Shown: piece after piece, positions 35,956-36,232 of the stretch
Layout of the letters: every line of letters begins with the position of its first letter
Numbering within the stretch: position 1 is the stretch's first letter
Origin: Labilithrix sp.
GTDB taxonomy: Bacteria; Myxococcota_A; Polyangia; Polyangiales; Polyangiaceae
Assembly: GCA_019637155.1 (NCBI GenBank)
Contig: JAHBWE010000017.1
Coordinates: 1 to 64,000 of the forward strand
DNA: 64,000 nt
Direction: 5' to 3'
Notes under the pieces: generated by a model
Databases searched by the model: none
Told to the model about the DNA's origin: nothing
Seen by the model: only the letters and a program-made list of their open reading frames with translations
Translations under genes and position numbers: made by a program

Positions 35956-36112
35956 GAGTGGCTCGACTCCACATGCACGGTCATGCGTCCTCCCCTCCGA
36001 CCGCGCGGCGGCGAGTGGCTCGACTCCACATGCACGGTCATGCGTCCCTCCCCTCCGACCGCGCGGCGGCGAGTGGCTCGACTCCACATGCACGGTCGCC
36101 CCCTCCGACCGT
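35956..36112. repeat. 2.7 copies of 57-58-bp tandem repeat (GAGTGGCTCGACTCCACATGCACGGTCATGCGTCC..CCCCTCCGACCGCGCGGCGGC)
   Basis: Read directly; copies at 35956-36012, 36013-36070, degenerate third to ~36112. Confidence 0.85.
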
Positions 36113-36146
36113 GGTGGTGGGTGGATCGTCGTGGCGGGCGCGTCTC

Positions 36147-36170
36147 AATTTATTTAAAATTAAATAAATT
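36147..36170. promoter_or_regulatory. 24-bp all-A/T perfect palindrome AATTTATTTA-aaat-TAAATAAATT, 62 bp upstream of ATG
   Basis: Read directly; only pure A/T 24-mer in a 70% GC window. Confidence 0.6.
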
Positions 36171-36232
36171 CGTTGTGGGGCGACGAGTGGCTGCTACTCC
36201 TACCTGCACCCACCGAGTGGGCGGAGGAGAAA

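Follow-up and report, generated by a model that had tools for sequence, protein, structure and literature searches.

The window, by which we mean the whole 64,000-nucleotide stretch of Labilithrix sp. contig JAHBWE010000017.1 analysed here (G+C content 69.7%), carries a gene for a secreted surface protein of the MYXO-CTERM type, separated by a 604-bp intergenic region from a divergent acyl-CoA ligase gene. We read this intergenic region as the control region of the surface-protein gene; it contains a short tandem array, a conserved sequence motif, a 24-nt palindrome built entirely of A and T, and a predicted promoter. We tentatively interpret the palindrome as a promoter-upstream A/T element, contacted in the minor groove, that would aid the recruitment of RNA polymerase in the manner of an UP (upstream) element, through the C-terminal domains of the polymerase alpha subunits; our confidence in this interpretation falls somewhat short of even. 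The features of the locus are as follows.

34261 to 35628, minus strand: divergent acyl-CoA synthetase/ligase gene, which bounds the 604-bp intergenic region (35629-36232).
35920 to 35954, plus strand: degenerate partial repeat copy, corresponding to the second half of the repeat unit (GACCGCGCGGCG-ATGCGTCTCTTTCCTCCCGACCA), which precedes the array.
35955 to 36111, plus strand: tandem array with a 57/58-bp unit, made up of unit 1 (35955-36011), unit 2 (36012-36069) and unit 3 (36070-36111).
36120 to 36128, plus strand: the motif GGTGGATCG, flanked by the repeats and the palindrome, placed at -113 relative to the ATG and at about -84 of the predicted promoter.
36147 to 36170, no strand: 24-nt A/T-only near-perfect palindrome, AATTTATTTAA-AA-TTAAATAAATT, read directly and assessed by run and symmetry statistics.
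36173 to 36178, plus strand: predicted -35 hexamer TTGTGG, whose TTG is invariant in six homologous promoters.
36184 to 36227, plus strand: promoter/leader segment, running from the promoter spacer through the -10 element and the start to the Shine-Dalgarno sequence, from which the 58-nt repeat unit derives or of which it is a paralogue.
36192 to 36200, plus strand: predicted extended -10 element TGCTACTCC (TG-n-TAnnnn, with no T at -7), whose TGCTA is invariant and lies 16 nt past the TTG.
36206 to 36208, plus strand: predicted transcription start, placed by the -10 spacing and by a CA-rich block conserved in homologues, giving a 5' untranslated region of about 26 nt.
36223 to 36229, plus strand: Shine-Dalgarno sequence GGAGGAG, read from the sequence.
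36233 to 37756, plus strand: secreted-protein gene, encoding a signal peptide, a choice-of-anchor D / ASH Ig-like domain and a duplicated MYXO-CTERM tail.

The palindrome reads AATTTATTTAAAATTAAATAAATT in full. A preliminary description of this DNA gave it 10-bp arms and a 4-nt spacer, which is correct; an equally valid description has 11-bp arms around a 2-nt AA spacer. Eleven of its 12 position pairs are complementary, and the probability of at least 11 complementary pairs is 0.003 given an A/T-only 24-mer. The same description had singled out the presence of an A/T-only 24-mer in DNA of about 70% G+C, and this feature is both real and rare: the second-longest A/T-only run in the window has 8 nt, the longest in 278 kb of related contigs (at least 60% G+C) has 10 nt, and runs of at least 24 nt are expected about 1e-8 to 1e-9 times per 64 kb. 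The 40 bp around the run have a G+C content of 27.5% and form by far the least stable duplex of the region, and the DNA hairpin that the palindrome can form has a folding energy of -5 kcal/mol (z = -2.98). A search for recurrence of the half-site, proposed at the outset, found no second copy of the 11-nt sequence in the window with up to two mismatches. Two A/T octamers that resemble the palindrome arms, at 31188 and 31320, were rejected as further copies, as they lie inside a coding region. In a genome collection that does not include the source metagenome-assembled genome (MAG), the full 24-mer is present in six genomes of typically A+T-rich taxa (Methanobrevibacter, Patescibacteria, Polaribacter, Treponema and Clostridium among them), and these six matches look like chance.

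Homologous loci, designated below by numbers with the prefix L, were obtained by exact-protein look-ups and one metagenome scan, and their gene neighbourhoods vary. The nearest relatives available share 63% protein identity with the window gene. In the upstream regions of 25 homologues there is no A/T run of more than 7 nt, no long-period tandem repeat and no equivalent dyad; judged from these sequences, the palindrome and the repeats appear to be lineage-specific among the loci compared. A different A/T-rich palindrome, ATTTGTAT-T-ATACAAAT, is found in L002 (4763-4782). There it closely follows a gene of the MarR family, and the gene for the homologous surface protein lies about 225 nt downstream of it. 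Its sequence has no relation to that of the window palindrome, and it might serve as a terminator or as the operator of a MarR regulator.

The core promoter was recognized by comparison of the closest homologues. This close set comprises six promoters, the one in the window included, whose proteins share 52-63% amino-acid identity. TTG-N16-TGCTA is invariant in all six and is followed by a CA-rich block, while the remaining upstream DNA cannot be aligned. In four of these promoters TGCTA begins 41-47 nt before the ATG; in the remaining pair the distance is 67 nt and 87 nt, respectively. By our estimate from base composition, such a two-block match would arise by chance at about 5e-4 per 150-nt upstream region. 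Within the window, the pattern TTG-N16-TGNTA is seen three times where 0.26 would be expected, and a start codon follows it in every case. Retention of this block in six diverged and otherwise unalignable upstream regions argues that it is the phylogenetic footprint of a sigma70-family promoter, and the block indeed reads as one with an extended -10 element and no T at -7. A scan of positions 35500-36400 with the sigma70 consensus called no -35/-10 pair, because the -10 element is non-consensus. The alternative that TGCTA of the close clade is the -12 element of a sigma54 promoter was rejected, since GG at the right spacing is present in L001 only. A terminator scan found a single weak terminator-like hairpin, at 35924-35937.

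A second promoter-like site of the form TTG-N16-TGCTA lies at 55113-55136, upstream of a gene for a lipoprotein-like product with a long Gly run. In the segment 54071-55190, about 1 kb of tandem repeats with periods of 42, 66 and 125 is followed by an A-rich patch, GAAAAAATCTGAAACT, by this promoter-like site and by the lipoprotein-like gene. The layout of a repeat array, a promoter and a secreted-protein gene is thus found twice in 64 kb.

The A/T run of the palindrome stops 2 nt short of the -35 hexamer and would therefore span approximately -60 to -37 (within 2 nt), which is the position of an UP element; the centres of its two arms fall at about -55 and -42, near the distal and proximal UP subsites. 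We estimate the a priori chance of such a placement within the 604-bp intergenic region, assuming a uniform distribution, at about 1%. The initial suspicion that the palindrome is associated with a promoter is thereby borne out, as the core promoter whose -35 hexamer it adjoins has been conserved in all six homologous loci. The first-reported distance of 62 nt between palindrome and ATG, with GGAGGAG as the Shine-Dalgarno sequence, is also correct. In five of the six close promoters, the window included, the interval from -60 to -37 is richer in A+T than the 100 nt that precede it. The values in four homologues are 0.38-0.54 against 0.18-0.40, and in L005 the two are equal (0.33 against 0.34). 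The conserved sequence GGATC(G/C) lies 50 nt from the -35 hexamer in the window and 47 nt in L002, and this similar spacing suggests that the run fills an existing interval and is not a simple 24-bp insertion. An UP element should present an A+T-rich block of about 20 bp at -40 to -60 beside the -35 hexamer, and here the block is 100% A/T; it should also be attached to a sigma70-family core promoter, and the predicted promoter supplies one.

Several observations weigh against this interpretation. Estrem et al. (1998) reportedly gave the UP consensus as NNAAAWWTWTTTTNNNAAANNN. The best registers of the palindrome on this E. coli consensus agree at 5-6 of the 11 strict positions, while random A/T-only 22-mers average 5.5. 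The dyad symmetry (11 of 12 pairs, P = 0.003) is not needed for UP function and is rather what a dimeric protein or a palindrome-generating mutation would lead one to expect. Finally, no other promoter-like site of the window has an A/T run of more than 8 nt and none of the 25 homologue promoters has one of more than 7 nt, and as an UP element the run would be both unique and extreme.

In the mechanism that we consider, transcription of the surface-protein gene would start near 36207, from a sigma70-family promoter with the -35 hexamer TTGTGG, a 16-nt spacer and the extended -10 element TGCTACTCC. The A/T run would offer a narrow, easily deformed minor groove to the alpha C-terminal domains of the polymerase, as at an UP element, and this contact would raise polymerase recruitment at a promoter that has no T at -7. 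A putative regulator of the protein family probably sits at GGTGGATCG, just upstream of the A/T element. The repeats would be a recent amplification (98% identical copies) of an older, decayed duplicate of the segment from the -10 element to the Shine-Dalgarno sequence, and would probably have no specific regulatory role besides spacing.

This arrangement has a close parallel in Rhodobacter sphaeroides, whose genome also has about 70% G+C: its rRNA promoters have TTG and TA and no -7T, as the window promoter does, and their transcription is increased by an UP-like sequence of strikingly high A+T content (PMC7703639). With these promoters and with E. coli rrnB P1 the window shares some 22-24 bp of A/T directly upstream of the -35 hexamer, from -60 to -37. 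It differs from them in that the order of its A- and T-tracts is no better than chance against the E. coli consensus, that its run is a near-perfect palindrome, and that its gene encodes a surface protein and not rRNA. A second parallel comes from the myxobacteria themselves. CarD of Myxococcus xanthus binds A/T tracts at -63 and -77 of the promoter PQRS (PMC8156234, PMC6061681), and the sites of CarD-CarG, like the palindrome, are promoter-proximal A/T tracts in G+C-rich myxobacterial DNA, where CarD binds in the minor groove and helps RNA polymerase. Yet CarD sites consist of two short, spaced tracts that lie further upstream, at promoters of extracytoplasmic function (ECF) sigma factors, whereas the window has one continuous 24-nt palindrome at a sigma70-type -35 hexamer.

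The motif GGTGGATCG upstream of the palindrome is itself conserved. It is present in exact form at six distant homologue loci (about 30-35% identity), and in one-base variants at three more: GGTGGATCC in L031 and L068 and GGCGGATCA in L015; the L068 protein is 48% identical. All homologue copies share one strand and fall between -125 and -143 (at -130 in one case), and no conservation extends into their flanks. In the 357 kb scanned, GGTGGATCG is seen 16 times where we would expect about 4, and six of these occurrences are at this fixed position. With its flanks, the window site ranks 32nd of about 128,000 positions scored by a position weight matrix (PWM). On this comparative evidence, GGTGGATCG is probably the site of a regulator of the family. 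In several distant homologues the motif is part of an ECF-sigma-like arrangement, GGATCG-N17-GTCAGA, while in the window the spacer to GTCTCA (36141-36146) has 13 nt. In L024, L031, L026, L020 and L034, G(T/C)CAGA is found 16-17 nt past GGTGGATCG, a pairing that resembles the -35/-10 pair of an ECF sigma factor.

The existence of nearly three copies of a 57-58-bp unit, reported at first sight, is borne out both by Tandem Repeats Finder (TRF), which returned 35955-36097 with a period of 58, 2.5 copies, 98% matches and a score of 279, and by the 26-mer CGAGTGGCTCGACTCCACATGCACGG, found exactly at 35955, 36012 and 36070. The third unit is shortened, ending at about 36111 with an internal deletion of about 10 nt. 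The degenerate copy before the array showed up in a BLAST self-comparison, which matched 35924-36022 to 36032-36128 at 72% identity. The unit is a paralogue of the adjacent promoter segment. In a local alignment, its first half is identical to 36179-36209 in 26 of 31 columns, two gap columns counted, a score reached by none of 2000 shuffled sequences and by 3 of 1707 window segments; a colinear semi-global alignment of the whole 58-nt unit with 36184-36227, allowing a 16-nt insertion, scored 19 against 7.6 +/- 2.1 for shuffles (0 of 1000). In the repeat copies the TA of the -10 element reads GA and the TTG of the -35 hexamer reads GCG. Colinearity with the segment from the -10 element to the Shine-Dalgarno sequence, combined with loss of TTG and TA, marks the repeats as decayed promoter/leader duplicates, which would afterwards have been amplified to near-identical copies.

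The preliminary description had offered the repeats as enhancer modules, a role that fits poorly with what they are, namely decayed copies of the segment from the -10 element to the Shine-Dalgarno sequence. Their RNA folding is no better than that of shuffled sequences (z = +1.44), and a search of Rfam with 35400-36500 returned nothing at E <= 10. The idea that the repeats are further copies of GGTGGATCG was rejected, since their PWM scores of 3.3-4.9 rank only 150-300 among window positions. Derivation of the second half of the unit from signal-peptide codons was likewise rejected: the two share ATGCGT only, and 824 of 3000 shuffles matched as well. Nor, within the 64 kb covered, do the repeats or the palindrome seem to belong to a mobile repeat family, a possibility named earlier as one that would refute the first interpretation. 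No scattered copies exist within the window, where the 26-mer occurs at this locus only (no other match with up to three mismatches), which speaks against a dispersed family of the REP, MITE or MIRU kind, and BLAST of 35880-36232 against the window returned only weak G+C-rich noise. Like variable-number tandem repeats (VNTRs) and MIRUs, the array consists of head-to-tail, intergenic, G+C-rich units of 50-60 bp. The copies are nearly identical (98%), as in a VNTR, and this near-identity points to recent slippage or unequal recombination. MIRUs, in contrast, form a dispersed family, whereas the unit described here is confined to one locus in 64 kb and is derived from the adjacent promoter/leader.

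The order of a conserved upstream motif, an A/T-rich segment and a core promoter also recalls IHF-assisted sigma54 promoters, and most of the distant homologues examined do carry sigma54-type -24/-12 elements, such as TGGACCCACGTTTGCA and CGGCACGGTGCGTGCT, against an expectation of 0.115 per 200 nt. These elements lie 30-45 nt before the ATG in L018, L024, L031, L026, L015, L025, L034 and L020, and 80-130 nt before it in L009, L011-L013 and L016. The window differs in that the sigma54 pattern YGG-N8-NTGCH (GG-N10-GC) is absent from the 200 nt upstream of 36233, and with no sigma54 promoter at this gene, an architecture of enhancer looping or IHF-assisted sigma54 activation does not apply. An IHF-type site had also been suggested. 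The best match to the IHF core WATCAANNNNTTR, AATAAATTCGTTG at 36163-36175, has a single mismatch, which falls on the consensus C of the core, and near-matches of this kind are to be expected in A/T-only DNA. From the sequences compared, it looks as if the promoter class has changed within the gene family, being sigma54 in distant members and sigma70-type in the six closest.

Four further explanations of the palindrome compete with an UP-like element, together with a more speculative combined model. The most serious of them, although unlikely, is that a sequence-specific dimeric regulator, either a repressor or an activator, uses the palindrome as its operator. With the centre of this operator at about -48.5, the regulator would be placed to touch the alpha C-terminal domains and sigma region 4 or to compete with them. 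An operator of a dimeric regulator was among the roles proposed at the outset, and the proposal has held up in part: the dyad symmetry goes beyond what A/T richness alone would produce (P = 0.003), which keeps this rival serious, and the palindrome directly adjoins the -35 hexamer. On the other hand, the half-site is unique in the window even with up to two mismatches allowed, none of the 25 homologue promoters has an equivalent dyad, and a site with no G/C position at all would be unusual for base-specific recognition in the major groove. In addition, the neighbouring genes encode an acyl-CoA ligase and an esterase, with no regulator gene adjacent.

A less probable explanation, which we regard as distinctly unlikely, makes the A/T run an architectural or melting element that couples GGTGGATCG to the core promoter, either by binding a minor-groove protein (a CarD-type AT-hook or H1-like protein, an IHF/HU-like protein or a silencer-like protein) or by stress-induced unwinding or cruciform extrusion. 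CarD is not known from outside the Cystobacterineae, which would count against its involvement here. In favour of an architectural role, the run sits between the motif at 36120-36128 and the -35 hexamer, and CarD-CarG of myxobacteria binds promoter-proximal A/T tracts via AT hooks (PMC8156234, PMC6061681). The incomplete IHF-core match at 36163-36175 might be added, but it has no core C and such matches come easily in A/T-only DNA, and there is no sigma54 promoter that would need looping. Melting would be favoured by the least stable duplex of the region (27.5% G+C over 40 bp) and by the 10-bp hairpin possible on each strand, yet at -5 kcal/mol this hairpin is weak.

Of the same low order of probability is the view that the run has no function, being either a neutral mutational product (a templated palindromic insertion, a repair scar or a foreign fragment) or an artefact of MAG assembly. 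Its absence from all 25 homologue promoters fits this view, a palindrome is the product expected from hairpin-templated repair, the run adjoins a recently amplified and slippage-prone repeat array, and another large intergenic repeat field exists at 54071-55034. A neutral origin does not readily account for the placement against the -35 hexamer (about 1% a priori) or for the spacing from GGATC to the -35 hexamer, which is kept relative to L002 and speaks against a simple 24-bp insertion. As for an artefact, an identical protein carries two NCBI accessions (MBX3232041.1 and MCW5813322.1), which suggests two assemblies, and the run resembles no familiar adapter or vector sequence.

The combined model, which we hold to be very unlikely, would make the palindrome the high-affinity site of an uncharacterised A/T-specific dimeric protein, an analogue of H-NS, Lsr2 or CarD in myxobacteria outside Cystobacterineae, that gates the surface-protein promoter; the decayed promoter copies, variable in number, would then tune expression as decoys or as spacers, much as at a contingency locus. 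Least likely of all is an additional or spurious promoter within the run, in tandem with the conserved one: the run does offer two TANNNT hexamers per strand (TAAAAT at 36155-36160 and TAAATT at 36165-36170 on the plus strand), and a good -10 element can suffice in high-G+C bacteria, but the consensus scan of 35500-36400 returned no -35/-10 pair, the conserved promoter lies directly downstream, and the homologues have no such run.

It therefore appears that a striking sequence feature is embedded in an essentially ordinary gene control region. If the interpretation of the palindrome as an UP-like element is true, the locus would illustrate cleanly, in a natural setting, how a strong promoter-upstream element can be made in a very G+C-rich bacterium, with all the A/T content packed into the 24 bp touched by RNA polymerase or by an architectural protein. 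A new kind of biology would be involved only if the palindrome were the site of an unknown A/T-specific regulator. The footprinted core promoter (TTG-N16-TGCTA, with no -7T) can aid promoter annotation in Labilithrix-like genomes, and GGTGGATCG marks a probable regulon of the MYXO-CTERM protein family.

The description of the downstream gene also needs revision. Its product has 507 amino acids when read from the ATG at 36233, compared with 465 in the PGAP annotation, and this ATG is the start favoured by the N-termini of nine homologues. The NCBI start of the protein (P0001, KIT84_20000, 465 aa) is a Met 42 codons downstream, and its use removes the signal peptide and a C-x4-C-S motif that is present in all homologues (36233-36358). 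Judged by this conservation, the NCBI start is 42 codons too late and the ATG at 36233 is the corrected one. The product was first described as a secreted MYXO-CTERM protein; the signal peptide is there, and the MYXO-CTERM assignment stands by a narrow margin, with a TIGR03901 score of 20.6 bits against a cutoff of 20. The top database match, P0001 at 100% identity, is a hypothetical protein of a Labilithrix sp. MAG. No coding signal in the G+C content of third codon positions (GC3) was detected in the 604-bp intergenic region, the repeats included.

Within the gene, a 27-bp tandem repeat of three copies (TRF, 37634-37715) lies in the 3' end. Through it, the part of the MYXO-CTERM tail that is hydrophobic and rich in Arg is present in duplicate (LGGLALAAALGARRRK / LGGLALAVSLLRRRG); in homologues the tail is single. 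At the other end, GC3 of the first approximately 45 codons (36233-36380) is 0.60-0.67, compared with 0.91-0.94 in the remainder of the gene, and in homologues low GC3 is confined to the first 15 codons or so. The same 5' segment has a positive GC skew of 0.48-0.63 and includes a G-quadruplex-type motif, GGGGGAGGGGTGTGCGGGGTGGAGGG, in a G-run at 36275-36300. On the opposite side of the intergenic region, upstream of the acyl-CoA ligase gene (minus strand, 35629-35650), TGCTATTTC ends 6 nt before the ATG at 35628 with no Shine-Dalgarno sequence, which points to transcription of this gene from an extended -10 promoter into an mRNA with no leader or almost none.

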